A stretch of 64,000 nucleotides of DNA, taken from Bacteroidales bacterium. GTDB taxonomy: Bacteria > Bacteroidota > Bacteroidia > Bacteroidales > ML635J-15. The notes under the pieces were generated by a model, which was not told where the DNA came from, searched no databases, and saw only the letters and a program-made list of their open reading frames with translations. Made by a program: the position numbers and the translations under genes. Positions 1-12,814 of this stretch are shown piece by piece (within the stretch, counting starts at the first letter, position 1; every line of letters starts with the position of its first letter). The stretch spans positions 1,918-65,917 of the forward strand of contig JAQIBY010000102.1 of NCBI GenBank assembly GCA_027858835.1, written 5' to 3'.

Positions 1-1
1 G

Positions 2-328
2 CCTGAGTATATTGGTATGGCAGCCGCTGCGGCTATCAACAAATTTCTGGAACATTCCAATCTTTTTATTGGTGATATTATTGCCCAGGCAAAATCTGCA
101 TCGCAATTCCAACACCCACTAGTCGTTATGGCTTATGGAATCGATGGAATTGGTAAATCCGCTAAGGTTTATCTCGAAGATGCTGTTTCCGGATCTCAGT
201 ATGACAAAACAATCCAAAAATATTCCGGTGGAATTGCCATTACACCGCAAACAGGAGTTATGATTAAAGTTAATGCTGGTGAAAATCTTTCATTGACAAT
301 GAAATTGTCCGCAACCTGGACATTGTAA
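2..328 (+). CDS. C-terminal fragment of an abundant structural protein (capsid-like candidate); ORF is open to the window edge
   Basis: There is no stop between nt 2 and the ATG at 17. The C-terminus is beta-rich, and the strongest intrinsic terminator of the element follows. No family is recognisable by eye. Confidence 0.45.
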   Translation, partial: PEYIGMAAAAAINKFLEHSNLFIGDIIAQAKSASQFQHPLVVMAYGIDGIGKSAKVYLEDAVSGSQYDKTIQKYSGGIAITPQTGVMIKVNAGENLSLTMKLSATWTL

Positions 329-361
329 GTCGCAACTTTAAGTTTCCAATTACATGAATGA

Positions 362-399
362 AAGCCCAGCCCCGATTTTGGGATTGGGCTTTTTTTTTA
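362..399 (+). terminator. Rho-independent terminator
   Basis: AAGCCCA (362-368) pairs with TGGGCTT (385-391), with inner CCC/GGG pairs, followed by a T9 run. Confidence 0.7.
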
Positions 400-412
400 A
401 AAAAGCAACATT

Positions 413-991
413 ATGACACACGAGGAGTTAGTAACGAGAATGAAAACAGATCCGGCATTTGTCGTTTCGTTTATCATTCAAAATAATCCAAAACGAGTTT
501 ATGAAAATATGCTTGCAAATGGCATTGTCACTTCATTGAATGCTAATATAATGTATTCGGATTTAATGAAATTTGCGGCAAAAAAACCAGACACTGCAAT
601 TGCAATTTTAAATATTCCTATCCGGGAAACCGAAGAGCAAATGCACCTTACCGAAGCAGTTAAATCTGCCGGCATTTTTAATCCGGTTAGTTCTAAAAAT
701 TCAATTTATGATGACACGTTTAATCCAGATGATGTTTTTGATGAATATGAAGATCGGCCAGATGATCCCTCCTATTTTGAAGATGAAGAAACATCCGGGA
801 ACTGGAACTGGGATTGGATCGGAAATTTCTTTGGGGCCTTGGGTGGAGCTTTTCAAGCATTTGGACCCGGTCAACAGCCGCCACAAAATGAACCTGAAGA
901 CAGCAGTTCAAAGCCAAAATCAATGACAATCATTCTCATTGTCTTGTTAGTCGTTGCAATCATTGTCGGTATGATCTTCCTAAAAAAATAA
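413..991 (+). CDS. Tail-anchored membrane protein (soluble N-domain, acidic/Pro-rich linker, C-terminal TM)
   Basis: 192-aa ORF with a C-terminal hydrophobic helix MTIILIVLLVVAIIVGMIFL followed by KK. An acidic D/E/P stretch precedes it. Confidence 0.6.
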   Translation: MTHEELVTRMKTDPAFVVSFIIQNNPKRVYENMLANGIVTSLNANIMYSDLMKFAAKKPDTAIAILNIPIRETEEQMHLTEAVKSAGIFNPVSSKNSIYDDTFNPDDVFDEYEDRPDDPSYFEDEETSGNWNWDWIGNFFGALGGAFQAFGPGQQPPQNEPEDSSSKPKSMTIILIVLLVVAIIVGMIFLKK

Positions 992-994
992 GCC

Positions 995-1321
995 ATGAAA
1001 GAAATTTTGAAAAAATCAATACCTTATGTTTTAGTGCTTGCAGTACTTGGATTTGCTTATGCATTATATGATGCTTATAAAAAATCTCGCGACAAACAAG
1101 GCTGGATTAATGGCTTAAAACAATCATTGTCCTATTACAATGAAAACACAAATGAGTGGCGAACTGCGATCGGGTGGCAAGAAGAGCTCAATGAATTTGT
1201 TCGAAAGCAGGCGGCACTACCAAAATTTGAAGCTGCCACAATACCAGAAGTTGTTAGGACTAACATTGATTGGTCCTATAACACATCAAAACCATTAGAG
1301 CGAATATTCATCAAAGTTTAA
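995..1321 (+). CDS. Small membrane protein (N-terminal TM)
   Basis: 108-aa ORF starting 4 nt after the previous stop. The helix is IPYVLVLAVLGFAYALY. Confidence 0.6.
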   Translation: MKEILKKSIPYVLVLAVLGFAYALYDAYKKSRDKQGWINGLKQSLSYYNENTNEWRTAIGWQEELNEFVRKQAALPKFEAATIPEVVRTNIDWSYNTSKPLERIFIKV

Positions 1322-1337
1322 TTAATAATCTCTCATT

Positions 1338-1439
1338 ATGAAAATGAAAACAAGGACACCAGTTTTAGTCATTGCAGGAATTGCAATTGCAGCTGTAGCA
1401 GTATGGTATTTTTTCCTACGCGAAAAAGATACTGAGTAA
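1338..1439 (+). CDS. 33-aa single-TM mini-protein (below the ORF-track cutoff)
   Basis: ATG 1338 to TAA 1437-1439. It translates as MKMKTRTPVLVIAGIAIAAVAVWYFFLREKDTE and fills an otherwise empty gap in a tightly packed operon. Confidence 0.45.
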   Translation: MKMKTRTPVLVIAGIAIAAVAVWYFFLREKDTE

Positions 1440-1463
1440 TTAACCAAAAAAAAACAGTAGCTT

Positions 1464-1592
1464 ATGGAAGCAACAAACTTTTTAATGATCCTTGCCGGGA
1501 TCTTAATTGTCGGAATGTTTTACCTGGTCCTTAAAAAACCAGAAGTAAACGTTCAATTCACAAATCCTGAAACTGAAGATAGCGATGAATAA
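1464..1592 (+). CDS. 42-aa single-TM mini-protein (below the ORF-track cutoff)
   Basis: ATG 1464 to TAA 1590-1592. It translates as MEATNFLMILAGILIVGMFYLVLKKPEVNVQFTNPETEDSDE. Confidence 0.45.
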   Translation: MEATNFLMILAGILIVGMFYLVLKKPEVNVQFTNPETEDSDE

Positions 1593-1722
1593 TGAATTAC
1601 TGTCAACTCGTGTTAATGTAGTTCTCGAAAAAGAATCAATACTTTATCTAGCCGGCTCGTTGGCAGTTGCAGGAATTATAATTATTTTATTTTGGGGTAT
1701 CATTAAAAAAATGGCATCCTAA
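1585..1722 (+). CDS. 45-aa single-TM mini-protein (below the ORF-track cutoff)
   Basis: ATG 1585 overlaps the previous ORF end by 8 nt. It translates as MNNELLSTRVNVVLEKESILYLAGSLAVAGIIIILFWGIIKKMAS, with the stop at 1720-1722. Confidence 0.45.
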   Translation: MNNELLSTRVNVVLEKESILYLAGSLAVAGIIIILFWGIIKKMAS

Positions 1723-1740
1723 AGGGTGTCATTTTTTTTT
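1711..1740 (+). terminator. Rho-independent terminator or attenuator
   Basis: ATGGCATCC (1711-1719) pairs with GGGTGTCAT (1724-1732) using two G-U pairs, with a TAAA loop, followed by a T9 run. Confidence 0.5.
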
Positions 1741-1751
1741 AAAACTTGATT

Positions 1752-1997
1752 ATGGTAAAGGTAATTGATAGTACAACTGCAGGTAGTTTGCCAATTGGGG
1801 CGAAAAAAATATACATTCAAAATTTAAGCAAAAAGGATTCTGTTGTTTTGACATTTTTGAATTCGGCAAGTGATCATCAAATTTTGCAATTGCAACAAAA
1901 TGCAATTTTGAATTTTGAATACAATCAAAATTCTTATCCGGCAATGACATTTGCCTGTAATAATGATGCTAGAATTCAAATTATAGCTGTTTATTAA
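1752..1997 (+). CDS. Small soluble beta-rich protein (vertex/penton candidate)
   Basis: The ORF track starts at TTG 1746, but ATG 1752 is more likely. There is no TM, and alternating hydrophobic beta-like segments are present. It is one of only two non-membrane ORFs in the block. Confidence 0.5.
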   Translation: MVKVIDSTTAGSLPIGAKKIYIQNLSKKDSVVLTFLNSASDHQILQLQQNAILNFEYNQNSYPAMTFACNNDARIQIIAVY

Positions 1998-2008
1998 GAT
2001 TTAGAAAT

Positions 2009-3322
2009 ATGGGATTTGGAACTAGACAAAGCATAGATAGTATATTATTACGTAATGTAATGAGTGTTGATCCGTCATTAGAACAAAATGAGGCACAACA
2101 TTTATTCAAAACTTACGCGGCTGCAAAAAAGTACATATTAGATAACTTAGATCCAGCTAGTAACACAAATAAGTATTTAATAAGGCTACCAGCTGGGGAA
2201 ATAAATGCAGCTGTTGCCGGAACGGAAATTGTCGGTGAGGAAGGTTGCGTTCATTTGGAGGCAAATATAATTCTCAGCTGTAATGATGCTACGGTAGTGA
2301 CGTGTCCACTAAAAAGTAATGGTTTAGTCGCTGATTTAATGACAGAGGGATTTAGTTATCTTTTTGCGTTTTATATTAATGGTGGGATATTTAAATCTAT
2401 TGAAGGAACCGGCAATTTATTTTCATTTTCAAATTCTTTATTGTCAGGATTTAATTTAGATTCTTGTGGTTTGTACATGAATGATATAGTTGTTTCAGAA
2501 GGATTTTCAATTGATACATTAATGTTTTTATCTTATAATTCAACTTTCGAAGAATCTTTTAGTTTATCAATTTCTAAAGATGCATTTACAAATAGATTAA
2601 TTGGGTGTAATGGAGCAATTGAACTCGTAAATCCCTCAGATACTTCCGCATATGCGGAAATCGTAGTTTACAACAGTGAAATTATATATGTTAAAAATAA
2701 TGACACTTCATATTACTACAGCTTTGACTTTAAAAATTCAAATGTTTCTTTCGATGGTGAATTTAATTTAACAGTTTATGGAGACATTCATTCTCAATCA
2801 TCCATTATTAAAATAGAAGGCGATATTGTTTTCACTAAATTTGTTTACGATTATAATGGTACTATAACATCAAATGGGTCAAATCTAACATTTGAAAATT
2901 CTGCTTATCTTTTTAATCTTGAAATTATAGATGTTACTTTAAATCTCAATAATGCAGCAGCGATAATAAATGTAAGAGGATTGCTAACTGCCAATCTTTT
3001 TAATATTACTGCTGGCATATTGAGTATTAATAATCCAGAAAAAATCATTCAAATAGTTGCCGATGCAGCAAACTATGAGGTTCTTCCCGGAACTTTGCAA
3101 TTAAATGTAGCGAATACTCCTGTCAATGCGCAAACAATAGTATTAAAAGACTATATGAAAAGCCCTCAATTGAATTTATTTATTGCAGACACTGATGATG
3201 CCAGTATAAATAACATCACAATTGAAGATGGTTTGGGAAACACAATTTATACGATAAATGCAGCTCGTGGATATGTTAATATTACTTATTCAGAAGGATT
3301 AGCTGAATTTATTGCAAAATGA
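2009..3322 (+). CDS. Large soluble N/S/T/I-rich protein (spike or receptor-binding candidate)
   Basis: 437-aa ORF with no TM. Its composition is repetitive and beta-helix-like. It is the largest protein of the visible element. Confidence 0.55.
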   Translation: MGFGTRQSIDSILLRNVMSVDPSLEQNEAQHLFKTYAAAKKYILDNLDPASNTNKYLIRLPAGEINAAVAGTEIVGEEGCVHLEANIILSCNDATVVTCPLKSNGLVADLMTEGFSYLFAFYINGGIFKSIEGTGNLFSFSNSLLSGFNLDSCGLYMNDIVVSEGFSIDTLMFLSYNSTFEESFSLSISKDAFTNRLIGCNGAIELVNPSDTSAYAEIVVYNSEIIYVKNNDTSYYYSFDFKNSNVSFDGEFNLTVYGDIHSQSSIIKIEGDIVFTKFVYDYNGTITSNGSNLTFENSAYLFNLEIIDVTLNLNNAAAIINVRGLLTANLFNITAGILSINNPEKIIQIVADAANYEVLPGTLQLNVANTPVNAQTIVLKDYMKSPQLNLFIADTDDASINNITIEDGLGNTIYTINAARGYVNITYSEGLAEFIAK

Positions 3323-3340
3323 TAATTTAATAATAAAATA

Positions 3341-3592
3341 ATGCTAAACAGTCTATTCACAAACATATTAACACCTATTGCGATAATAGGCAACGTATTT
3401 GAAACCTTCACACAAGGCAATGTGCTTTCCGGCTTGCTAGCTTGTACTGTCGCTTTTCTTGTGATAATTTATTGGATCATCAGAATACAGCGCGAGTGGT
3501 GGCATCGATCAGATGAAAGAAAAGTTCGCATACGCAAAAAACCAAAAAAAACAATCAACAAAAAACAATCAACAATAAGCAATCAACAATAA
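3341..3592 (+). CDS. Membrane protein with a basic C-terminal tail that runs into heptad array A
   Basis: 83 aa with hydrophobic segments ILTPIAIIGNVF and LLACTVAFLVIIYWII. The stop TAA 3590-3592 lies inside a CAATAAG unit. Confidence 0.55.
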   Translation: MLNSLFTNILTPIAIIGNVFETFTQGNVLSGLLACTVAFLVIIYWIIRIQREWWHRSDERKVRIRKKPKKTINKKQSTISNQQ

Positions 3593-3631
3593 GCAATCAG
3601 CAATAAGCAATCAGCAATCAACAATCAACAA
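3552..3631 (+). repeat. Heptad iteron array A (about 11 units of CAAT[C/A]A[A/G])
   Basis: Units in order from 3552: CAATCAA, CAAAAAA, CAATCAA, CAATAAG, CAATCAA, CAATAAG, CAATCAG, CAATAAG, CAATCAG, CAATCAA, CAATCAA. Then CAA and ATG at 3632. Confidence 0.95.
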
Positions 3632-4174
3632 ATGACAAAAAAACATTACATATTTATCTTAATATTAATCTCCTGGCTATTTGGGTTAGGGCTCGGTTCT
3701 TATCTTGGTGAAAAACATGCCAAAACAGAAACCGAAACAATTTATTTAGATAAAATAGTAATTGAAAAAGATACGCTGTTAATTACAGATACAGTACAAA
3801 TGCCAATCCCGGCACGAGTTGATACAGTTCAGGTATTAAGAGAATTTCACACAAAGCGAATAATTCGAGATACCGTAATAAACAACGACACAGTATTAAT
3901 TGTCATTCGTGACACCGTATATCAAAACAAAATAATTAATCGTAGAGTTGACTATCAAAATTTAATGCCAGTTCCAGTTATTTTTAAAACTGCAAATACA
4001 TTTAGTGCCGGCTTGAATTTAAACACAATTAACGGTTTTGGATATGGCCCGGCAATAAATTACAATCACCAAAAATTAACCTGTGGCTTAACCGCAGACC
4101 TTAAAAATAAAATCATTTTAGGAACAATAACAATCAAAATATTTTCCAATCAACAATCAACAATCAACAATTAG
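3632..4174 (+). CDS. Membrane-anchored protein (N-terminal TM) bracketed by arrays A and B
   Basis: 180 aa with helix YIFILILISWLFGLGLGSYLG. The ATG directly follows array A. The stop TAG 4172-4174 lies inside a CAATTAG unit of array B. Confidence 0.6.
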   Translation: MTKKHYIFILILISWLFGLGLGSYLGEKHAKTETETIYLDKIVIEKDTLLITDTVQMPIPARVDTVQVLREFHTKRIIRDTVINNDTVLIVIRDTVYQNKIINRRVDYQNLMPVPVIFKTANTFSAGLNLNTINGFGYGPAINYNHQKLTCGLTADLKNKIILGTITIKIFSNQQSTINN

Positions 4175-4255
4175 CAATCAGCAATCAACAATCAACAATA
4201 AGCAATAAGCAATCAACAATTAGCAATTAGCAATCAACAATCAGCAATCAGCAAA
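4147..4255 (+). repeat. Heptad iteron array B (15 units)
   Basis: Exact 7-bp register from 4147 to 4251: CAATCAA x3, CAATTAG, CAATCAG, CAATCAA x2, CAATAAG x2, CAATCAA, CAATTAG x2, CAATCAA, CAATCAG x2. Then CAAA and ATG at 4256. Confidence 0.95.
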
Positions 4256-4348
4256 ATGGACACTAAAAAAATAATCGAAATACTAACAATAATCACAAGC
4301 TTATTAATAGTCATAAGCTATGTAATGAAATTTTTTAGAAATGAATAA
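4256..4348 (+). CDS. 30-aa single-TM mini-protein (below the ORF-track cutoff)
   Basis: The ATG immediately follows array B. It translates as MDTKKIIEILTIITSLLIVISYVMKFFRNE. The stop overlaps the next ATG (4341). Confidence 0.45.
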   Translation: MDTKKIIEILTIITSLLIVISYVMKFFRNE

Positions 4349-4718
4349 AATAAATTTCAAAATAAAAAAACCGGTACGATTTGCGATTCTTGCGATACTT
4401 GCAGTTTTTGTAATTGCCTTAATTGCATCACCAAAATTCCGGGATAAAATAAAACAGATCTTGCACGACTTGTTATTTAATCCACTGGGGTTTGATCCGT
4501 TTGGAATGGCTGAATCAAGTACTGACAACAACGACAATGGAGACAACTCAGATGATGAATCCGGGGGAGATGATGACACGATAAATCCCGGTGATAATTG
4601 GGGAGATGCAGGCGAACAAACCCCATGTGATCCTGATTTAATTGTGAGTGAATATTATGTTGGTGAAACTTTAGTTCATGAAAATGAATGTGGTGGTATT
4701 GTAGTATTCGCAAATTAA
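4341..4718 (+). CDS. Membrane-anchored protein with an acidic D/N/G-rich ectodomain
   Basis: 125 aa with helix VRFAILAILAVFVIALIAS followed by the run DNNDNGDNSDDESGGDDD. Confidence 0.6.
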   Translation: MNKINFKIKKPVRFAILAILAVFVIALIASPKFRDKIKQILHDLLFNPLGFDPFGMAESSTDNNDNGDNSDDESGGDDDTINPGDNWGDAGEQTPCDPDLIVSEYYVGETLVHENECGGIVVFAN

Positions 4719-4730
4719 AATTAATGAATT

Positions 4731-5117
4731 ATGAAAGCAAAGTATTGGCAAGTTTTAACAGTGTTTTTAGGTGTTTTAATATCCTGGTTCGTATTTCGGA
4801 GGTATAAGGTGTATTACTTCTATTCAGTTTTGACAGGTAGTGAAACATTAAGTTTTTTCTTTAAGCCTGTTGATTTTAATTCATTTAAAGAAATTCCAAA
4901 TAATTTCAAAAATGGTGAAATAGTAACAGTTGAGGAAAACGCAACAATACCTGATGGAATTAAAAGCAAAATAGGAAGTGGTTCTGAAAGATATAAACAT
5001 TTAATTATTGCTTTTTCTGCAAGTAATTACTTTAAGTTTTATAAGGAGCTTGAGGAATATTTCAACACGAAAAAACTATTGAAGTTTAACTTTAAATTTG
5101 AAGGTGGTTATGAGTAA
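4731..5117 (+). CDS. Membrane-anchored protein (N-terminal TM)
   Basis: 128 aa with helix WQVLTVFLGVLISWFVF. Confidence 0.55.
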   Translation: MKAKYWQVLTVFLGVLISWFVFRRYKVYYFYSVLTGSETLSFFFKPVDFNSFKEIPNNFKNGEIVTVEENATIPDGIKSKIGSGSERYKHLIIAFSASNYFKFYKELEEYFNTKKLLKFNFKFEGGYE

Positions 5118-5289
5118 AACAGGATCATTTTACCTTATGATGGCTGGAACATTGTTCTTGCCGGCGGTCGCTTATCTTGTGACAACGCAATTTAAGTTAG
5201 ACAAAAACTTACAGCTTCTAATTGTCATCTTAGCACTAGCTTTAGGTGGCGCATGGAGCGCAGGAATAATTGAAAAAACGGAGGATTAA
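5098..5289 (+). CDS. Two-TM mini-protein
   Basis: 63 aa with helices FYLMMAGTLFLPAVAYLV and LLIVILALALGGAWSAGII. It overlaps the previous ORF by 20 nt. Confidence 0.55.
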   Translation: MKVVMSKTGSFYLMMAGTLFLPAVAYLVTTQFKLDKNLQLLIVILALALGGAWSAGIIEKTED

Positions 5290-5291
5290 AT

Positions 5292-5918
5292 ATGGCAGGA
5301 TTTACTATAAGAGACAGTGATTTTAAAGGTCCTTTTTTTTGGACTGTTTATCGTAATAACTTTCTTAGCAATTTTCAGAAATATTATGAAGAAAATGACA
5401 AACTAAAAACATATGAGTGGTTTAATTCAGCAAAACAAAAAGCTGATGAATTAGGTGGAAAATGGGAGGTTAAAAAAATGAACGCGGCTAATGCAGCCAG
5501 TTACTCAGGAGGTACTGAATGGTCTGTTGATTTGGTGCCTGCAATGACATGGGATGAATACAGGGCTTATCCACTTTCTTGGAAAGCTAAAAGCATAATA
5601 AAGTTATTGCATGATAATGGATTTAATTGGAATACTTATCATGCTGATTTACGACACGCGTTCAATAATTGGTCTTATGCCGGAGTTCAGTATCCAATTG
5701 ACAAATCAAATGTTGAAAATTATATAGCATCACTTGAAGATTTATGGCAAGGCATATATGAGGATGAACCAGAAAATGTAAATGCTGGTTTTCCGGATCC
5801 TGTCGACCCGCCTGGTGGAAATGATCCATCACTTTCAAACATTTTTGCAATTAAAAATTTAGTCATTGTCGGTGCAATATTTCTGGTATTGATTTTTCTA
5901 ATTTATTTATACGCTTAA
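5292..5918 (+). CDS. Tail-anchored membrane protein (soluble W/Y-rich N-domain, acidic/Pro linker, C-terminal TM)
   Basis: 208 aa. The linker EDEPENVNAGFPDPVDPPGGNDP is followed by helix LVIVGAIFLVLIFLIYLYA at the extreme C-terminus. Confidence 0.6.
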   Translation: MAGFTIRDSDFKGPFFWTVYRNNFLSNFQKYYEENDKLKTYEWFNSAKQKADELGGKWEVKKMNAANAASYSGGTEWSVDLVPAMTWDEYRAYPLSWKAKSIIKLLHDNGFNWNTYHADLRHAFNNWSYAGVQYPIDKSNVENYIASLEDLWQGIYEDEPENVNAGFPDPVDPPGGNDPSLSNIFAIKNLVIVGAIFLVLIFLIYLYA

Positions 5919-5929
5919 AAAAATAAGAT

Positions 5930-6148
5930 ATGGTGGTACTAGCAGGATTAACAGCCGCACTCGGTGGAGTTTTTAAATTTCTTAATTACAGACAACAGAT
6001 GGACGCTGCACAAACAGCCGCTGAATACGAATTGCTTGCAAGGGCACAACAGCAGCAAACTCTGAAAATAATCATCATGGGATCCGTAATGGTAATGATG
6101 ATTGTTGTAATTGGTTGGGTATTAACATCAAAAATGAAAAATAAATGA
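5930..6148 (+). CDS. Two-TM mini-protein
   Basis: 72 aa with helices VVLAGLTAALGGVF and IIIMGSVMVMMIVVIGWVL. Its stop overlaps the next ATG. Confidence 0.55.
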   Translation: MVVLAGLTAALGGVFKFLNYRQQMDAAQTAAEYELLARAQQQQTLKIIIMGSVMVMMIVVIGWVLTSKMKNK

Positions 6149-6966
6149 AAAAGATTTTAAAATTTATTTTGCCGGTTATTATTCTGGCAATTGTCATTAT
6201 TGCGAAAATAAGCATTAGTGACAATGAGGCATTGATTGTTAACAGGCAATCAGATCCGAATTTACGTGTATTAGTCGTTGCCGGTCATGGTGAACAAATT
6301 AATTCATCATATCAAACAGCTGGTAAGCAATCCCCGACATGGGAAAACGGATTAAAAATTTACGAGGGCATCTCTAATAAGGATCTGGCTGAAAATTTAG
6401 TGATAAAATTAAAACATGCCGGCATTGATGCGCAAATCATAAATCCGGAGCTTCGAGATATAAGTTTACAAGCTCGCATAAATCGTATAAATACAATATA
6501 TAGTTACGATAAGCGATCAATAGCAATTTTCCTGCATCACAACGCACAAGCTTACAATAAAACAGCTGATTATTTTGATAAACAAAACTTATACGGCTGG
6601 ACATCAGCAGAGATAGGAGGTGCAACCGGCACGGAAATTTTCACAAGTAAAGGATTTACAAAAGCCGATCAGATTGCAAAATACATAGGAAATTCAATCA
6701 GCAATCAACAATCAGCAATTAGCAATCTAAAATTCCGCGGATTAAAAGAAGCGAATTTCTTTGTTTTAAAATACACATCTTGTCCTGCAGCATTGCTTGA
6801 ATTTGGCTTTATGACAACAAAGGTTCCTGATTGTATGGTGATCTCTGATTCGTTACACAGAGAAATTTATTTGCAATCAATAGTCTCCGGATTAAAACAA
6901 TATTCAAACTCAATCAGCAATCAACAATTAGCAATCAACAATCAACAATTAACAATTAACAATTAA
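6145..6966 (+). CDS. Membrane-anchored N-acetylmuramoyl-L-alanine amidase (Amidase_3-like), carrying array C internally and array D at its 3' end
   Basis: N-terminal helix ILPVIILAIVIIAKI. The amidase-3 landmarks are VVAGHGE, AIFLHHNA and ANFFVLKYTSCPAALLEFGFMT. The stop TAA 6964-6966 lies inside a CAATTAA unit. Confidence 0.75.
   Translation: MKKILKFILPVIILAIVIIAKISISDNEALIVNRQSDPNLRVLVVAGHGEQINSSYQTAGKQSPTWENGLKIYEGISNKDLAENLVIKLKHAGIDAQIINPELRDISLQARINRINTIYSYDKRSIAIFLHHNAQAYNKTADYFDKQNLYGWTSAEIGGATGTEIFTSKGFTKADQIAKYIGNSISNQQSAISNLKFRGLKEANFFVLKYTSCPAALLEFGFMTTKVPDCMVISDSLHREIYLQSIVSGLKQYSNSISNQQLAINNQQLTINN
6695..6729 (+). repeat. Heptad iteron array C (5 units), inside the amidase coding sequence
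   Basis: The units are CAATCAG, CAATCAA, CAATCAG, CAATTAG, CAATCTA. They are read through in frame as SISNQQSAISNL. Confidence 0.9.
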
Positions 6967-6984
6967 CAATTAACACTCAACAAT
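6911..6984 (+). repeat. Heptad iteron array D (10 units)
   Basis: The units are CAATCAG, CAATCAA, CAATTAG, CAATCAA x2, CAATTAA x4, CACTCAA. Then CAAT and ATG at 6985. Confidence 0.95.
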
Positions 6985-7275
6985 ATGAACCAAATAATTC
7001 ATCAATCAGGCACAGGAAAAGCAACCTATGAAGGAGATCTTCATCCAGATGCTGTACTTATTACCGAAGGTGAAGACGGCCGGGAATACGAGGTTGGACC
7101 AGTTTTTATTATTGACGGTCTTGATGATTACGTACCTCCTATAGATCCTGATGATCAAGAGCCAGGCTCTGATGAAGATGAACCTGCTGCTAAAATTTCA
7201 CCAACTATGATTCTTATAGGTGGTGGTATTTTGCTTGCACTAGGTGTTGCAATTTATTTCATTACAAAAAAATAA
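6985..7275 (+). CDS. Tail-anchored membrane protein (small N-domain, acidic/Pro linker, C-terminal TM)
   Basis: 96 aa. The ATG directly follows array D. The linker PPIDPDDQEPGSDEDEP is followed by helix MILIGGGILLALGVAIYFIT. Confidence 0.6.
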   Translation: MNQIIHQSGTGKATYEGDLHPDAVLITEGEDGREYEVGPVFIIDGLDDYVPPIDPDDQEPGSDEDEPAAKISPTMILIGGGILLALGVAIYFITKK

Positions 7276-7341
7276 TGAAATAATGGAAAACAGAACCACA
7301 AATAAAAGCGAAAATAAATGAGATATTAAAAACAGAGACTT

Positions 7342-7779
7342 ATGAAACTCATGAACATGCAAAAGTCATATATCGTCGGCTTTGTGCTTATTGTAATTAT
7401 TATTGCAGTGGCATACTTTTCGGGTAAGAGCAAAGGATCAGAAGATTACCCTGAATTTCCTGTACCTGATGATACTCCAGGTAGTACAATCAATTTAGAT
7501 CAGGCAAAAGTGCAACGTATTGCGGTAGGTTTGCATAATGATTTGGATAGTTTCTTTTTATTTGAACGTTACAATACTTCGCTTTGGCAGGAATTTGCAA
7601 GTAGTTCTGATACTGAGTTTGTTGCTATTTACAATTATTTCAATGATAAATGGTATGCAGACAAAAGTAAAACGCTGCGCGAAAGGATTGAGTCGCGGCC
7701 AATCTCATGGTTTAGTGGCATATTGCGTACAACTATAGCTATGATCCTACAACGTTTAACACGCTTAAATTTAGTGTAA
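7342..7779 (+). CDS. Membrane-anchored protein (N-terminal TM)
   Basis: 145 aa with helix YIVGFVLIVIIIAVAYFSG. Its stop overlaps the next ATG. Confidence 0.55.
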   Translation: MKLMNMQKSYIVGFVLIVIIIAVAYFSGKSKGSEDYPEFPVPDDTPGSTINLDQAKVQRIAVGLHNDLDSFFLFERYNTSLWQEFASSSDTEFVAIYNYFNDKWYADKSKTLRERIESRPISWFSGILRTTIAMILQRLTRLNLV

Positions 7780-8135
7780 TGGATAAAAAAAACTACATAT
7801 TCATTGGTATTGCAGTTGTCTTAATTGCTGTAGTTTATTTAAGGTTCCTGAATAACACCGGTTCATCTAGCAATAATCAACCTAGCAATGATCAACCTGA
7901 CAATAATCAAACTTGTACCAATCCAACTACATGGGTTACAACTTCATTTCCATTACAACTAGGAGTTGCTAACAACTATGTAAAATTGCTTCAATTGAAT
8001 TTAAACGACAATTTTAATGCTGGGCTTAATCCTGATAAAAAATTTGGCTGCAATACCCAAGCTGCATTAATGCAGTACACCGGTAAATCTAAAATTAGAT
8101 CAGCACTAGAACTTTACATAATTATTGATTCCTAA
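7779..8135 (+). CDS. Membrane-anchored peptidoglycan-binding-domain protein (PG_binding_1-like)
   Basis: 118 aa with helix YIFIGIAVVLIAVVYL and a Q/N/P linker. The C-terminal segment VKLLQLNLN...PDKKFGCNTQAALMQY resembles the PG_binding_1 pattern (V..LQ..L ... DG.FG..T..A...FQ). Confidence 0.5.
   Translation: MDKKNYIFIGIAVVLIAVVYLRFLNNTGSSSNNQPSNDQPDNNQTCTNPTTWVTTSFPLQLGVANNYVKLLQLNLNDNFNAGLNPDKKFGCNTQAALMQYTGKSKIRSALELYIIIDS
7871..7915 (+). repeat. 15-bp x3 in-frame tandem repeat in the linker of the PG-binding protein
   Basis: The units are CAATAATCAACCTAG, CAATGATCAACCTGA and CAATAATCAAACTTG. They encode NNQPS/NDQPD/NNQTC. The CAAT..TCAA core echoes the heptad motif. Confidence 0.8.
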
Positions 8136-8163
8136 TTATATTTATGAAAAATACAAAGAAATA

Positions 8164-8781
8164 ATGAAAGCTGGAACACGTGAAATATTAATAGCCATAG
8201 GCATTAGCATAGCTTTTGCCGTGGCTTACTATTTTTGGTATTCCAGAAAATTGCATCCATTATTGCGCAGGAAAACAACCGGCACCGAAAAAGATGAATA
8301 CATTAAAAAGCTTGAAAGTGTATCACGCAATTTGCGTATTAATCCTAATGCCTTGTGGCTTGTTATCAATTCAGAAAGCCGGCACAATCCCGGAGCCATA
8401 AATCCGTACAACGGGGCAACCGGTTTAATTCAATTTGTGAATTCAACCGCGCAAACACTCGGCACAAGCTTCAGCGCATTACGGCAAATGTCGCGAATCG
8501 ATCAGCTGGATTATGTTCAGTCATATTACAAAATGTTCAAGCGCGCCAGCAATTATTCCGATTTGTATTTAACAACCTTTTATCCCTATGCTTTAGGCAA
8601 GCCGGATAGTTACATATTTGGATCAGAAGTTTCACCGGCCAGAGTTGCCATAATAACAGCTCAAAACCCATTTGATGAAAATGGAGATGGTGAAATAACC
8701 ATGAAAGAATTTAAAACATTTGCCAGGAAACAAATTGTGGCAGGTGTAGTTCCAAAATGGTTTGAATATTTATTAATGTAA
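8164..8781 (+). CDS. Membrane-anchored lytic transglycosylase (SLT domain)
   Basis: The ORF track begins at TTG 8125, but in-frame ATG 8164 avoids overlap and starts MKAGTREILIAIGISIAFAVAYYFWY (TM). The SLT signature is INSESRHNPGAINPYNGATGLIQF (E-S ... G-L-x-Q). Confidence 0.7.
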   Translation: MKAGTREILIAIGISIAFAVAYYFWYSRKLHPLLRRKTTGTEKDEYIKKLESVSRNLRINPNALWLVINSESRHNPGAINPYNGATGLIQFVNSTAQTLGTSFSALRQMSRIDQLDYVQSYYKMFKRASNYSDLYLTTFYPYALGKPDSYIFGSEVSPARVAIITAQNPFDENGDGEITMKEFKTFARKQIVAGVVPKWFEYLLM

Positions 8782-8841
8782 ACGAAATGGAAATAAGAAA
8801 TGAAAGGCAAATAAGCCTACAATTTTAATAAACAATTTTAT

Positions 8842-9198
8842 ATGGAAAAATATAAATTAATTAAAAATACATTTGTATATAAAAGCAACCCACATCCAAC
8901 AGGAGATGCAGACTTAACAATAAAAGTTCGTAGCATTGCAAAAGATACAACTGTTAACGTTTCTGCTGAAGGTAATATTATTAGATCTTGGTCATCAACA
9001 CCAATATTGTATATTGTTGATAGCATTGGCATTCCCGAATTTATTCACAAGTCAGATGTTGTTCTTATGGCATCAGGTTCACAAGATGACAATGCCCACG
9101 TTGGAACAGAGAGTGTTCCATTAATGGATAAGCTCATTGCTAAAATCAGAACTTATGTATTGGAAGGCGAACCAAAACAATCAAAGTTAAACTTTTAA
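8842..9198 (+). CDS. Soluble hypothetical protein
   Basis: 118-aa ORF with no TM and no recognisable motif. Confidence 0.5.
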   Translation: MEKYKLIKNTFVYKSNPHPTGDADLTIKVRSIAKDTTVNVSAEGNIIRSWSSTPILYIVDSIGIPEFIHKSDVVLMASGSQDDNAHVGTESVPLMDKLIAKIRTYVLEGEPKQSKLNF

Positions 9199-9208
9199 AG
9201 AATTCATC

Positions 9209-9382
9209 ATGAAAAAACAAAGTGAAAACCATTATGATATTGCCTATAAAACTAAAAGTGGTAGAATGATGGTTGCAAAAAATATTTCTGGTATCAATGC
9301 AAATGCTGCAAAGGCAAAGCTAAAAAAGCAAATGCGCAAATCATCTAGTTTCGACAGTATAATTACTGCTGTTAAGGTGTAG
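9209..9382 (+). CDS. 57-aa basic soluble mini-protein (below the ORF-track cutoff); small DNA-binding candidate
   Basis: ATG 9209 to TAG 9380-9382. It translates as MKKQSENHYDIAYKTKSGRMMVAKNISGINANAAKAKLKKQMRKSSSFDSIITAVKV. It is K/R-rich with no TM. Confidence 0.4.
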   Translation: MKKQSENHYDIAYKTKSGRMMVAKNISGINANAAKAKLKKQMRKSSSFDSIITAVKV

Positions 9383-9424
9383 AACAATAAAAATTACTAT
9401 ATTTATAAACTAAAATTAATTCTT

Positions 9425-9748
9425 ATGAGCAAATACAAAGTCAGCTGGTTGATATTGCTACCAGAAAAAGGAAAAGCAACAAAAAGAGAGGTTTCTATTA
9501 TCAACAAAAAATGTCCTTATCATGGGTTTGGCATTATTGGACTGGATAAATATATGATAGGAGGGCATTTCCCAAGTAAAAAAGAAGCTGAAAAATGCTT
9601 GCCTAAAATTAAAGGATTGGGAAAGCCTTATCGTGCATACATTATAACAGATGCTCAGTTTGGTAGTATGAAGATTGATCATGCAACAGGTTTGAATAGT
9701 CTATTTATTACAGGTAGGCAAAAAAAAGCAAGTAAAATTATCAAATAA
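9425..9748 (+). CDS. Hypothetical protein
   Basis: 107-aa basic ORF and the last gene of the rightward operon. No recognisable motif. Confidence 0.5.
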   Translation: MSKYKVSWLILLPEKGKATKREVSIINKKCPYHGFGIIGLDKYMIGGHFPSKKEAEKCLPKIKGLGKPYRAYIITDAQFGSMKIDHATGLNSLFITGRQKKASKIIK

Positions 9749-9754
9749 AAAAAA

Positions 9755-9817
9755 GTCCACATGATCGGTTTTTGTTGTGACAACATTTGAAAGCAAATCA
9801 CAATTGATCATGTGGAC
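9755..9817 (-). terminator. Perfect 12-bp inverted repeat with a nested hairpin; probable terminator between convergent operons
   Basis: GTCCACATGATC (9755-9766) pairs with GATCATGTGGAC (9806-9817). The 39-nt loop contains TGTTG-TGA-CAACA. The A8 run on the + side gives a T8 run after the stem on the - strand. Confidence 0.5.
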
Positions 9818-9926
9818 GCTGCAAGTGTAATACTTTTATTTTTGTTTTACAAGTTTTCTAGTGTAAAATGATTGAATTCGGTTGTAAAATCAATATTTTC
9901 CTTCCGGGTTATTACATTAATTGTTA

Positions 9927-10346
9927 TCAGTCAACAGCATAAATTGAATTTTTACGGCGGATATAATCATTTAGAATCGCTTCGTAGTTATCAACTCTCA
10001 TACTAGATCGACCTGTCAAATAGTCTGAAATCGTTGCCTGTCTAATATTAACTTTTTTTGCAATCGCTGCTTGATGCTCTAATGCCATTGACTGTTTTAA
10101 TAATTCACGCATATCAATTTTGTTTTGACATGTCGTAAGATTAAAAACAAATTTAATCAAAGGGCTGTCAATTATAGGTACCGGGGATTCTAGTTTTTTA
10201 TTTGCATTAGTCATCGCGAGTAAGTCCAGGGACAAATTCAAAACAGCAACTAACTCATGATCATCACGAGAAAATTCAGCCCCGTGATCACGTAAACCTT
10301 CAAGCTGTATTATAGCTTCTGATAATTGTTCAAATATTTCCATCAT
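9927..10346 (-). CDS. XRE-family helix-turn-helix regulator (HTH at the C-terminus)
   Basis: The segment HQAAIAKKVNIRQATISDYLTGRSSMRVDNYEAIL fits the Cro/C1-type HTH pattern. The gene lies in the lysogeny module next to the integrase. Confidence 0.65.
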   Translation of the reverse strand: MMEIFEQLSEAIIQLEGLRDHGAEFSRDDHELVAVLNLSLDLLAMTNANKKLESPVPIIDSPLIKFVFNLTTCQNKIDMRELLKQSMALEHQAAIAKKVNIRQATISDYLTGRSSMRVDNYEAILNDYIRRKNSIYAVD

Positions 10347-10393
10347 TTAAAATTTTGTGCCGGACTTATCCCGAAGGTGCCAGCGGTTAATGT

Positions 10394-10768
10394 TTAGTCC
10401 TCAAATAATTCGAGGTTTAAAATAGTATCTTCAATGGACTCCTCTATGTGCTGTGTATAACCACAAGCATCAAAGTCCATTTCTTCAATATTGTCATAAC
10501 CAAATTCCTCTGGACTTGGCGTTTCATGATCTTTAATTGTGTAAAAGCAATTGTCGCTTAGTTGCTGCTGTCCTAAGTAGTACAGATAATCAACAGTTAA
10601 TTCGTTTGTTTCTTCGTCAATCTTAAAGAAAAATGTCCTGTTAGCTAAGTCGCCACTTAAAGTAGTAGGCATTATTTCTAATGTTTTTTCAACTAATTCA
10701 TCTTTTCTTGTTTTTAGAATTTTTAAAGTTTCCATAATATTGTTTTTTTTAATGTTACAAAATTCCAT
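10394..10768 (-). CDS. Highly acidic small protein, first gene of the leftward operon
   Basis: 124 aa, or 113 aa from the internal ATG at 10735 (METLKIL). The C-terminal half is very D/E-rich (EEFGYDNIEEMDFDACGYTQHIEESIEDTILNLELFED). Confidence 0.5.
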   Translation of the reverse strand: MEFCNIKKNNIMETLKILKTRKDELVEKTLEIMPTTLSGDLANRTFFFKIDEETNELTVDYLYYLGQQQLSDNCFYTIKDHETPSPEEFGYDNIEEMDFDACGYTQHIEESIEDTILNLELFED

Positions 10769-10797
10769 TTGGTACGATTGATATCAGATTACAAATA

Positions 10798-10846
10798 TAC
10801 GGTATTGCGTAATGAAAACCAAATAAATTTTACGGTTTAGCGTAAT
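10798..10846. promoter_or_regulatory. Two operator-like 16-bp direct repeats in the divergent promoter region
   Basis: TACGGTATTGCGTAAT (10798-10813) and TACGGTTTAGCGTAAT (10831-10846) match at 14 of 16 positions. Each holds a TACG/CGTA half-palindrome. The centre-to-centre spacing is 33 bp. Confidence 0.45.
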
Positions 10847-10986
10847 TTGAAAGGATTCTAAATAAAAAAATACTGCAAAAACTGGCATGAGACTGACATA
10901 AAGCAAGAAATGAAATTTGTCAATAAGATTGGTTTGTAGTCTGGCAGGGAAATTGTATATTTACAGCAAATCAAATCGAACAAACT

Positions 10987-11484
10987 ATGAAAACAATCAA
11001 GATTTTAACCGTATTTGTCATTTTAATGGCTTTATTTTCATCATGCAAGGATGAGTATGTAGAGGTTGAAAAACCTAAAATTTACCGCTTTGAATACGAA
11101 GCAGAGGACTGGGAGTGGGAGTATAATGATGATAAAACTGTGCAATTTCACGAAGTCCGAAATTCAGTTACCGCAAATGTGCGAGCTAATTATTTAATAT
11201 TTTGCTATGTCAAAGCAAGCGGATCAATGTATCAAATGCCTTTTTCAACGAATTCACTTAGTTATTATTTCGTTTTTGAAGATTACGACATGGGTTTAAT
11301 AAAACAAACATTAGACGGCTATGTATGGACTCAAAAAAGTGATGAAGATTTTGTAATATACATTATGGATCCCGAATACACTGAAAATCTCAATGTTCAA
11401 TCTGAAAAATCAGTGATTGAATTTTTATCAAAAGAATTTCCACAGGATGTTGAAATCTTAAATGAAGTGAGTTTAGTCAATTAA
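10987..11484 (+). CDS. Lipoprotein of unknown function (prophage moron candidate)
   Basis: The signal peptide plus lipobox is MKTIKILTVFVILMALFSSC. The gene has its own promoter region and converges on the integrase with a 12-nt overlap. Confidence 0.6.
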   Translation: MKTIKILTVFVILMALFSSCKDEYVEVEKPKIYRFEYEAEDWEWEYNDDKTVQFHEVRNSVTANVRANYLIFCYVKASGSMYQMPFSTNSLSYYFVFEDYDMGLIKQTLDGYVWTQKSDEDFVIYIMDPEYTENLNVQSEKSVIEFLSKEFPQDVEILNEVSLVN

Positions 11485-12579
11485 AGATATTTGATCTTTT
11501 AAAGTCAAATCAACTAATCGGGAGTACACTAGCGTACTCTCGATTTTTTTGTGACCTAAAAGGTTTTTTAGCGCAAACAAATTCCCACCTCTATTCAGGA
11601 AATAAACAGAAAATGAATGCCTGGCCGTTTTCGTACTTATCGGCTTGTCAATTCCAGCAGCTTTAGCAATTTTCTTTAATTCCCGGTTAATATATTGATC
11701 TGAAATGTTTTGAAAAATAGAACTTTTAGTATAAACATCCGGTACATATTTTATAGCTCTATTTGCGATTGGAATATTAAGTGATTTGCTTGTTTTTTGC
11801 ATTTGTACATTAATCACTTTTGCATCAATCATTTGTCCTGTAACTTTGTTCCAGTCGCTGTAACGCAGGCCCGTAAAACAAAAGAACAAAAACATTTGTA
11901 GTATGTCTCGGTGAAAACCGGCCGGCATGTTTACAAAAAATGTTTCAAGTGATTCCAATTCCAAAGGTGTTAAGTAAACCGGATCTTTATCAATCTCATG
12001 AATTTTATAATCACTAAACGGATTTTTCCTTAAATAACCTTTTCGGATTGCCAGGCCACAATACTTTTTCAGGAAACGAAATTTCGTGACAATAGCATTA
12101 TGTGAGTTTCCCCGGTCCTGTAAAAATGTATAAAGTTCATTAATCCAGCTGTAGGTTATTTTTGAAAAATAAACCGGTTTATCATACTCATGTATAACAT
12201 TCAAATTAGACTTGTGGCGTTTAATTGTTCCCCAGGCATAATGATGACTATTTTCAATATGATCTTTATTCATTAAGAATTCAACTGTTTTTGTGTTGTC
12301 ATTAAAAAGCCTAGTAAATATTTCAGAAATTGAAAGTGATAATTCATTAACTTCAATATCTGCCTGAATTTGATTAAGTTCAAGTTGTATTTTTTGCAAC
12401 TTCAAATTATTAATTGTTGTTAATTTTGATTTTCCTATGAATTTTTGTTGGTCCTGGTTCCAGTCATCCGGGTTAATATCTGAAACAATTTTTTGCTGTG
12501 ATCTTTTGCTATTAATTGAAACAGCCAGTAGTATATTACTATGCTTGCCGCGAGTGTCTATTCTGAATTTATATTTCAT
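11473..12579 (-). CDS. int: Tyrosine-type site-specific integrase
   Basis: Catalytic-domain landmarks are CFTGLRYSDW, ARHSFSVYF and LLGHKKIESTLVYSRL (R...H-x-x-R...H...Y). The gene is adjacent to the tRNA 3' end. Confidence 0.85.
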   Translation of the reverse strand: MKYKFRIDTRGKHSNILLAVSINSKRSQQKIVSDINPDDWNQDQQKFIGKSKLTTINNLKLQKIQLELNQIQADIEVNELSLSISEIFTRLFNDNTKTVEFLMNKDHIENSHHYAWGTIKRHKSNLNVIHEYDKPVYFSKITYSWINELYTFLQDRGNSHNAIVTKFRFLKKYCGLAIRKGYLRKNPFSDYKIHEIDKDPVYLTPLELESLETFFVNMPAGFHRDILQMFLFFCFTGLRYSDWNKVTGQMIDAKVINVQMQKTSKSLNIPIANRAIKYVPDVYTKSSIFQNISDQYINRELKKIAKAAGIDKPISTKTARHSFSVYFLNRGGNLFALKNLLGHKKIESTLVYSRLVDLTLKDQISLID

Positions 12580-12586
12580 AGGTTCG

Positions 12587-12662
12587 GTGTCGTTTCAATA
12601 TTTAGCTTGTTGCAGACTTGTTGCAGTATTGTTGCAAAAACCGTCTTATTTAGTGTCGTTTC
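12587..12662. promoter_or_regulatory. Candidate arm-type recombinase/RDF binding sites in the att-proximal arm
   Basis: TTGTTGCA occurs three times at exact 11-bp phasing (12607, 12618, 12629). GTGTCGTTTC occurs twice (12587-12596 and 12653-12662), 66 bp apart. Confidence 0.45.
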
Positions 12663-12696
12663 GTTGTCATTGGGAACGCTTGGCTTCTAACTAAAA

Positions 12697-12739
12697 CACT
12701 GAAAACCATATAATTTAATGATTTTCAGTGCTTTCAGTG
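12697..12739. repeat. Inverted plus direct TTTCAGTG repeats abutting the tRNA 3' end (candidate core-type att sites)
   Basis: CACTGAAAA (12697-12705) pairs with TTTTCAGTG (12722-12730), followed by CTTTCAGTG (12731-12739) directly before the tRNA discriminator position. Confidence 0.45.
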
Positions 12740-12814
12740 TGATCCAGCCAGGGCTCGAACCTGGGACCTACGGCTTAGAAGGCCGTTGCTCTAATCCAAC
12801 TGAGCTACTAGACC
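12740..12814 (-). tRNA. tRNA-Arg (anticodon TCT)
   Basis: The reverse complement folds as a cloverleaf. The acceptor GGTCTAG/CTGGATC has two G-U pairs. The D-arm is GCTCAGTTGGATTAGAGC. The anticodon stem ACGGC/GCCGT carries the loop CTTCTAA. The T-arm is CCAGGTTCGAGCCCTGG. CCA is not encoded. Confidence 0.9.

Follow-up and report, generated by a model that had tools for sequence, protein, structure and literature searches.

A tRNA-Arg-integrated element of a Bacteroidales genome with gene content suggestive of a tailless membrane phage

To our knowledge, hardly any tailless phages that contain lipid are known from anaerobic Bacteroidota, and the only characterised membrane phage of the phylum is the single-stranded DNA (ssDNA) phage FLiP. 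FLiP (Finnlakeviridae) is a tailless Flavobacterium phage with an internal membrane, and one of its structural proteins is a lytic enzyme; reports also exist of FLiP-like proviruses, up to 17 kb long, in Bacteroidetes (PMC5894146). PRD1 (Tectiviridae) and PM2 (Corticoviridae) have an internal membrane, and about half of their virion proteins are small membrane proteins. The known genomes of the Thermus phages P23-77 and IN93 (Matsushitaviridae, Helvetiavirae) are circular double-stranded DNA (dsDNA) of 17-20 kb. Here we describe an element in a 64,000-nucleotide stretch of a Bacteroidales genome (assembly GCA_027858835.1, contig JAQIBY010000102.1, positions 1,918 to 65,917; referred to as the window) for which P23-77 and IN93 are the closest match in its presumed way of working, although it could not be assigned to any of the families compared. 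Positions 1 to ~12,800 of the window are the right part of an element of >15.5 kb in total which is integrated at tRNA-Arg. We read this element, at a probability of roughly 0.6, as a phage of a Bacteroidota host that is temperate and tailless, with a dsDNA genome and a virion of the internal-membrane type.

The plus-strand block between positions 413 and 8781 holds 20 open reading frames (ORFs), 18 of which the first-pass annotation, made from the sequence alone, had taken to encode membrane proteins. Hydrophobic helices were scored with a 19-residue Kyte-Doolittle (KD) scan using cut-offs of 1.6 and 2.3. Seventeen of the 20 ORFs reached the lower cut-off and 14 the higher; ORF 4731-5117 was borderline (KD 1.51, with an N-terminal hydrophobic stretch of 18 residues), and ORFs 1752-1997 and 2009-3322 had no hydrophobic helix. 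The earlier count is acceptable, since only these last two are soluble and one of the other 18 is marginal. Among host ORFs (window 13000-64000) 45% satisfied the same criterion, giving a probability of 3e-4 for at least 17 of 20, and only 2 of 48 small decoy ORFs in the other frames of the block reached KD 2.3 as compared with all four mini-ORFs (1338-1439, 1464-1592, 1585-1722 and 4256-4348). The membrane-protein block is real and not a product of chance. The tight packing with overlap coupling that had been described was likewise confirmed, as six of 19 junctions overlap, including an ATGA at 6145, and 96.7% of the block is coding. No Shine-Dalgarno sequences were found ahead of the block genes; their absence is usual for Bacteroidota.

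The gene to the left of this block is cut by the window start, and its full 188-aa product was obtained from two metagenome contigs (L001 and L002) which hold the same element at 99% identity. A word-index protein search of 5.8 billion clusters with the 188-aa query returned no homolog beyond the query, and the same type of search with the family alignment returned three proteins only. Exhaustive HMMER searching of 1.84 billion proteins produced a rare family with 27 cluster representatives (180-283 aa, E values down to 9e-21), and the origins shown for 21 of these were metagenome assemblies and metagenome-assembled genomes (MAGs). The AlphaFold model (AF2, family alignment; predicted local distance difference test, pLDDT, 79.6; predicted template modelling score, pTM, 0.69) is a sandwich of eight strands whose loops contain helices, preceded by a disordered N-terminal arm of 40 residues. 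Foldseek gave no strong match to this model (E 1e-3 to 1e-2, TM ~0.3), and nearly all of the matches were jelly-rolls: nucleoplasmin cores, capsid proteins of picorna-, tymo- and bromoviruses and of satellite tobacco mosaic virus, and C1q-/TNF-like domains. In our reading the 188-aa protein is jelly-roll-like and founds a new sequence family; the evidence for its fold is moderate, not strong. As it is positioned before a terminator and is conserved, it fits a major structural protein, and it would presumably build the shell. With respect to the earlier proposal that ORF 2-328 is part of a major capsid protein preceding a strong terminator, the terminator was confirmed (Table 1), and the jelly-roll-like model and the use of the gene as family marker agree with a capsid role; a sequence link to known capsids was not obtained.

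Profile scanning of all proteins of the window element and of four relatives (L009, L010, L014 and L026) revealed a single member of the jelly-roll family in each, with no second copy. Only relative L027 carries tandem paralogs (L027:4199-4756 and L027:4758-5258, 185 and 166 aa; hhalign 97.8%, E 1e-12), a pair reminiscent of the small and large capsid proteins of P23-77. Two candidates for a double jelly-roll protein were rejected: the 262-aa upstream protein (337-341 aa in relatives), which has glycosyltransferase-like motifs and a coiled-coil tail, and a 254-305-aa protein preceding the ATPase of the relatives, which is Pro/Glu/Lys-rich with two hydrophobic helices. When tested by sequence, no conserved soluble protein of at least 250 aa was found across the family.

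The five relatives comprise L009 (10.6 kb, from a Bacteroidales MAG) and the contigs L010/L011 (20.4 kb), L014 (17.4 kb), L026 (14.2 kb) and L027 (9.65 kb). All share a layout in which the jelly-roll-like gene is followed by a homolog of 413-991, by 9-15 small ORFs mostly with a hydrophobic helix, and by a wall hydrolase (an M15 peptidase or a phrog_873-type enzyme); the 413-991 homolog lies immediately 3' of the jelly-roll gene or genes in five of five (phmmer 2e-10 to 1.6e-4). After the hydrolase come a beta protein of ~83 aa (in four of the five) and then variable large soluble proteins, some with tailspike-type domains. Homologs in relatives were obtained for ORFs 413-991, 1464-1592 and 7342-7779 and, with a weaker match, for 1338-1439, and the remaining membrane proteins are specific to the window element in this comparison. 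The proteins of 3341..6148 had neither homologs in relatives nor a Pfam, PHROG or NCBIfam family among those scanned (4256-4348 lay outside the scan). As for the four mini-ORFs which the first reading had added to the block, outside support was obtained for 1464-1592 (homologs in L026, L010, L009 and L014) and, less firmly, for 1338-1439 (L014, plus L010 after one iteration, with a match resting largely on the helix), both of which are also called in a JGI contig; for 1585-1722 and 4256-4348 there was none beyond their hydrophobicity.

Upstream of the jelly-roll-like gene, L010, L014, L026 and L027 carry a module encoding proteins of ~93 aa and ~110 aa, the Pro/Glu/Lys-rich protein already mentioned, and a P-loop ATPase of ~190 aa. 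Pfam matches to the ATPase were mostly to the Walker A motif only, and long alignments were obtained only to Pox_A32 and HerA, both under the curated cut-offs. When a seven-sequence profile of the ATPase was used as hhalign query, the profile of the P23-77 and IN93 packaging ATPases was matched at 95.9% (E 5e-9, 148-179 columns), PRD1 P9 at 84% (E 7.7e-6, 175 columns) and PM2 P9 at 33% (E 4.7e-4, 165 columns), as compared with 41% for the best host P-loop control (E 2.8e-4, 156 columns). Genome packaging by an ATPase of the FtsK/HerA superfamily (A32-like) characterises both kingdoms of Varidnaviria, and we infer that the window element itself carries such an ATPase. A D5/VapE-type primase-helicase was also found in L010, L014 and L026 and suggests that these elements are dsDNA replicons of 14-20 kb. 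No integrase was seen on the L014, L026 and L027 contigs, so these elements may be lytic, episomal or simply incomplete.

Taken together with the window, this organisation resembles that of P23-77 and IN93, in which a packaging ATPase of ~190-225 aa, jelly-roll capsid genes of 170-290 aa and a string of small membrane proteins follow one another, with a lysozyme or amidase and a transglycosylase late in the operon. In the temperate IN93 an opposite-strand integrase and a repressor come right after the transglycosylase, the same order as in the window, and the 14-20 kb contigs of the larger relatives are close in size to the Matsushitaviridae genomes. In contrast, the capsid proteins VP16 and VP17 show no sequence similarity to the 188-aa family, two capsid genes stand side by side in Helvetiavirae-type phages (Matsushitaviridae, Sphaerolipoviridae and Simuloviridae) where the window element, L009, L010, L014 and L026 have one (L027 alone having two), and the host is Thermus rather than an anaerobe-type Bacteroidota. 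Unlike Matsushitaviridae, the present family has a glycosyltransferase-like gene beside the capsid gene, and the window element a tailspike-like spike in common with tailed phages.

The first-pass annotation had likened the block to PM2, PRD1 and FLiP, and this part of it did not stand. PRD1 shares with the present elements, besides small membrane proteins, a membrane-associated transglycosylase (P7); it has a penton and spike at the vertex, comparable to the vertex proposed here, and an ATPase (P9) with which that of the relatives aligns. However, PRD1 and PM2 have a double jelly-roll capsid protein of 269-395 aa, as expected throughout the Bamfordvirae phages (Tectiviridae, Corticoviridae, Autolykiviridae and Finnlakeviridae), and none was detectable here by sequence; the PRD1 genome is linear and encodes a protein-primed polymerase, and PM2 has a rolling-circle initiator and a P9 only weakly matched by the relatives' ATPase. 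FLiP is similar in its host phylum, its internal membrane and the lack of a tail, but its genome is ssDNA, its rolling-circle initiator is M13-like, its capsid protein is a double jelly-roll and it lacks a packaging ATPase, whereas the relatives here have a primase-helicase and an ATPase; FLiP proteins showed no similarity to the family profiles. Neither an Inoviridae Zot-type ATPase nor a rolling-circle initiator family was found, the one Zot-like PHROG match (E 0.013) falling on a hydrophobic segment of a relative's protein. Sequence searches of the PDB yielded no specific match to the family, ATPase or glycosyltransferase profile.

In the mechanism we propose, the plus-strand block would be a late operon. 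It would open with a highly expressed jelly-roll-like capsid protein of ~190 aa, whose gene is closed by the terminator, and continue with virion-membrane proteins, mostly single-pass with an N- or C-terminal anchor. The small beta protein and a beta-helix receptor-binding spike may form the vertex, and three anchored wall-directed proteins (the amidase, a possible peptidoglycan binder and the lytic transglycosylase) would open the wall at entry and/or lysis, a role comparable to that of PRD1 P7 and the transglycosylases or lysozymes of P23-77 and IN93. A FtsK/HerA-like ATPase of ~190 aa, upstream in relatives, would pump DNA into a preformed membrane-lined procapsid. The earlier proposal of a membrane-containing, tailless virus thus agrees with the gene content, the synteny and ATPase of the relatives, and the lack of tailed-phage hallmarks; that the particle contains a membrane beneath its shell, as in prokaryotic Varidnaviria, is our interpretation and has indirect support from the hydrophobic helices of 17-18 of the 20 late-operon proteins.

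Several observations weigh against such a phage. The fold of the capsid candidate is weakly supported (Foldseek E ~1e-3, TM ~0.3), and profile comparison of the 188-aa family with the capsid proteins of FLiP, PM2 (P2), PRD1 (P3), P23-77 and IN93 gave no signal. Known single-jelly-roll membrane phages have two capsid proteins and this element shows one. The ATPase and replication genes were seen in relatives only, the sequence covered for the window element (15.5 kb, including the upstream part of L001/L002) ending short of its left part, and no relative contig could be demonstrated to be complete or circular. Finally, tailed phages are the only source of homologs for the 437-aa protein encoded by ORF 2009-3322 and for the amidase, and a crAss001_48-family gene (63 aa) lies upstream in L002.

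One alternative is an enveloped or pleomorphic virus, plasmavirus- or pleolipovirus-like, which would lack an icosahedral shell, have the small proteins in its envelope and use the jelly-roll-like protein as a spike or genome-associated protein. Membrane proteins dominate the operon, a single small jelly-roll-like gene is present, a double jelly-roll protein was not found, and the top fold matches include nucleoplasmin-type pentamers and C1q/TNF-type domains, which are not shell proteins. We consider this unlikely, as the relatives' ATPase is related over its full length to packaging ATPases of capsid-bearing membrane phages, and a Gram-negative host is combined with three wall-directed enzymes or binders, as in icosahedral membrane phages. 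Plasmaviridae are defined by the lack of a capsid protein and a wall-less host, and the element here encodes both wall hydrolases and a jelly-roll-like protein.

A satellite or defective element without a capsid of its own, which would retain integrase, lysis and surface genes and ride on a helper, perhaps a crAss-like phage with the same receptor-binding protein, is unlikely as well. The element is small, integrates at a tRNA with its own integrase and has a receptor-binding protein in common with tailed phages, and VapE/D5-type primases, as carried by the relatives, are common in satellites. L001 and L002 diverge only 2 kb upstream of the capsid-candidate gene (L001:1-50 versus L002:767-816), upstream of a small hairpin; these sister samples hold near-identical copies up to that point, ~2 kb left of the window start, which marks either the edge of a mosaic segment or a branch in the assembly. 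Against a satellite, a jelly-roll-like structural candidate is encoded by the element itself and is conserved together with a packaging-type ATPase in relatives, the cell-wall hydrolases are likewise its own, and capsid-redirecting or head-completion genes of known satellites were not detected.

The third alternative is the end or remnant of a tailed prophage with head, tail and packaging genes further upstream and the block as an unusually long lysis, accessory and exclusion region. One point for it comes from the 437-aa protein, whose homologs (35-47% identity over 95-96% of the length) were found only in phage contigs with a tailed-phage context. In two crAss-like contigs the homolog lies near an Amidase_3 gene and upstream of a Crass_capsid-family gene, with downstream genes of sizes fitting terminase and portal and no Pfam match on record; in a third phage contig it closes a tail module. 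The AF2 model is of poor quality (pLDDT 59.7) with a solenoid-like core at residues 190-330, and Foldseek gave weak, only indicative matches to tail fibres and to pectate-lyase-type spikes. The protein is best read as a receptor-binding spike moving between phages of the same hosts. The first reading had proposed a spike; as the protein is homologous over 95-96% of its length to tailed-phage proteins, it fits a tailed or a tailless virion alike. The crAss-like and other Bacteroidota tailed phages also share the Amidase_3 lysin (37-41% identity to the amidases of crAss-like L005 and L008). In these two contigs homologs of the 437-aa protein and of the amidase lie close together (L005:10001-13937 and L008:1836-4415), which suggests a spike-plus-lysin cassette exchanged between tailed and tailless phages with a host range in common. 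These shared genes, the crAss001_48-family gene in L002 and the position of the element's left part outside the covered sequence are points for a tailed prophage.

Tailed phages of Bacteroidota differ in having terminase, portal, HK97 capsid, tape measure and tail genes, none of which was found in the element or its relatives. Pfam and PHROGs covered 27 of the 30 element ORFs (1338 and 4256 were in neither, and 9927-10346 in Pfam only) and NCBIfam 10 proteins; among the ORFs scanned, family matches were obtained only for the amidase, SLT, integrase, helix-turn-helix (HTH) and crAss001_48-type proteins. Portal, terminase, HK97 capsid and tail families were not detected in window 1-12,600 or in the L002 upstream ORFs scanned (Pfam, PHROGs), nor in the precomputed Pfam lists of L009-L027 or the selected L010, L014 and L026 genes (PHROG, Pfam). 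Tail tube, tape measure and baseplate genes were equally lacking, the only resemblances being the tailspike-like protein and an SLT domain like the lytic domains of tail proteins. The original statement that no portal, terminase, tail, baseplate or tape-measure protein is visible is therefore upheld across the 27 ORFs. Relatives with the same marker and synteny have the primase-helicase and a small non-terminase ATPase directly upstream and no head or tail genes in 14-20 kb, and in the tailed-phage versions of the 437-aa protein the N-terminus differs and is longer by ~25-40 residues. We know of no tailed-phage late region with a run of 17-18 membrane proteins. On balance a tailed prophage is improbable. 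A non-viral integrative island encoding a membrane or secretion apparatus, which the many membrane proteins, the integrase and the tRNA site might recall, is very improbable, since Tra, type IV secretion, relaxase and other conjugation or secretion families gave no Pfam or NCBIfam match, and phage-type lysins, a tailspike-like protein, a jelly-roll-like protein and, in relatives, a packaging-type ATPase are present.

For the second soluble protein of the block, the 81-aa product of 1752-1997, a positional counterpart of 83-87 aa, also beta-rich, stands just ahead of the large soluble proteins in four of five relatives (it was not identified in L027); the hhalign comparison gave a probability of 35% (E 4e-4, 61 columns). 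It may be a penton-like vertex protein.

Neither Pfam, PHROGs and NCBIfam nor the GenBank phages, PLSDB and IMG/VR contain the family. IMG/VR yielded no match to the 188-aa or the 437-aa protein, nor to the alignments of the family and of the ATPase, tblastn against 50,697 GenBank phage records and PLSDB plasmids gave nothing useful, and of two metagenome scans the first was empty and the second returned only contigs of 1.4-3.5 kb. No published description of such a phage group was found in the literature searched; a gut Vinavirales survey (PMC9502842) and a marine 'Charybdis' preprint (10.1101/2025.08.03.668216) concern unrelated elements. To call the element uncharacterised, as was done at first, is fair because it is absent from all phage resources searched. 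The family is invisible to current tools, so it would escape surveys of prophages and viromes in gut-like and anaerobic habitats. Should the ~190-aa protein be a shell protein, the family would bear on jelly-roll capsid evolution and would show receptor-binding gene flow between tailed and tailless phages. The integrated copy at tRNA-Arg is a concrete lysogen to look for. More tentatively, and as a possibility we would not favour at present, the elements may form a new deep lineage of membrane dsDNA phages of anaerobic Bacteroidales with a shell of a single small upright jelly-roll protein, in which L027 is just past a gene duplication and spikes and lysins are traded with crAss-like phages. 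Were this so, they would be a living example of the one-gene state from which the two-protein capsids of Helvetiavirae and the fused double jelly-roll capsids may have arisen.

The positions of all features are collected in Table 1. The lysis or entry enzymes and the lysogeny module described at first were confirmed as Amidase_3, SLT, integrase and HTH proteins. The SLT protein matches lytic domains of baseplate-hub and tail proteins among PHROGs (3e-25), and the C-terminus of the 118-aa protein preceding it is possibly peptidoglycan-binding. The predicted lipoprotein gene, probably an accessory gene expressed in the lysogen, shares 12 bases with the 3' end of the integrase gene, and a 12-pair terminator hairpin follows it at 11516-11545.

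Table 1. Features of the element in window coordinates, with the genes and repeats known from contigs L001 and L002.
Position	Strand	Feature	Evidence or remark
Left of window start (L001/L002)		63-aa crAss001_48-family protein; ORFs of 76 and 72 aa; 262-aa protein; 150-aa coiled-coil protein; full 188-aa protein	
2..328	+	C-terminal 108 residues of the 188-aa jelly-roll-like protein (P0001)	full length from L001, L002
360..399	+	Intrinsic terminator after the capsid-candidate gene	14-pair hairpin then U9, -21 kcal/mol, z = -2.7
413..991	+	192-aa protein, soluble N-terminal domain and C-terminal anchor	helix 172-190, KD 3.39
995-1321 (108 aa), 1338-1439 (33 aa), 1464-1592 (42 aa), 1585-1722 (45 aa)	+	Four small membrane proteins	one helix each
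1752..1997	+	81-aa soluble beta-rich protein, possible penton-like vertex protein	no hydrophobic helix
2009..3322	+	437-aa tailspike-like receptor-binding protein	homology and weak Foldseek matches
3341-3592, 3632-4174, 4256-4348, 4341-4718, 4731-5117, 5098-5289, 5292-5918, 5930-6148	+	Eight membrane proteins	4731-5117 marginal; two helices in 5098-5289 and 5930-6148
6145..6966	+	N-acetylmuramoyl-L-alanine amidase, N-terminal anchor	Pfam Amidase_3 2.3e-16; PHROG endolysin 2.5e-18; helix 4-22, KD 2.78
6985..7275	+	96-aa protein, acidic N-terminal part and C-terminal membrane anchor	KD scan
7342..7779	+	145-aa N-terminally anchored protein, conserved in the family	homologs L026 3e-15, L009 4e-10, L027 2e-6 (one iteration)
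7779..8135	+	118-aa membrane-anchored protein, N-terminal helix	weak PHROG endolysin match, residues 59-106, E 0.029
8125..8781	+	SLT lytic transglycosylase, N-terminal anchor	Pfam SLT 9.3e-8
8842..9748	+	Three small soluble ORFs at the operon end (118, 57, 107 aa)	no family matched
9927..10768	-	Lysogeny control: 139-aa HTH protein (9927-10346) and 124-aa ORF	Pfam HTH_3 E 1e-3, under curated cut-off
10987..11484	+	165-aa predicted lipoprotein	signal peptide then Cys read from sequence; no family matched
11473..12579	-	Tyrosine integrase	Pfam Phage_integrase 5e-17, Phage_int_SAM_5 8e-16, Arm-DNA-bind_5
12739..12814	-	tRNA-Arg(TCT), right border	ARAGORN, Rfam
3550-3631, 4123-4254, 6695-6727, 6911-6984; L002 ~890-930 and inside L002:1148-1936	+	CAATCAR arrays	

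The window begins within the integrated element and the tRNA is its right end, because the integrase adjoins tRNA-Arg and repressor and lysis genes precede it; contig L001 breaks within this tRNA. A copy of the tRNA 3' end, which would mark the left attachment site, was not found in L001 or L002. In the spacer between integrase and tRNA (12580-12738) an 11-nt tandem repeat, CTTGTTGCAGA, is present in 2.8 copies (12606-12636) and TGTCGTTTC is present twice (12588 and 12654); both are candidate arm-type integrase sites, the short spacer motif alone being not above chance within the window. A motif possibly common to the spacer and the left end of L001 was rejected, as it was not above chance.

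With respect to the upstream genes, the 262-aa and 150-aa coiled-coil proteins (L002:1148-2385) correspond to a single protein of 337-341 aa in L010 (8177-9190) and L014 (7954-8979), which from alignment motifs, with no database match, looks like a GT-A-type glycosyltransferase. This gene is conserved just upstream of the capsid candidate in three elements and is split only in the window element. L010 (2519-3914) and L014 (6079-7498) have several further sugar-modifying enzymes (GT25, GT11, TOD1/MUCI70, PIG-L and a FkbM-type methyltransferase), and these genes together hint at glycosylation of the virion or the host surface. At the other end of the relatives a terminal minus-strand gene was seen (L014:16504-17073, L026:13802-14221 and L027:8971-9465); the L014 and L026 genes are alike by eye, and the gene is unrelated to the HTH gene of the window.

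Tandem arrays of the heptamer CAATCAR occur on the plus strand only and inside the element only, with 29 matches observed and none expected. Three of the arrays finish exactly at start codons (3632, 4256 and 6985) and another lies within the amidase gene, while one lengthens the product of the glycosyltransferase-like gene by 14 residues relative to its homologs. Two of the arrays coincide with, or lie near, indels that distinguish the window, L001 and L002. The arrays may be unstructured, G-poor translation leaders or slippage-prone repeats.

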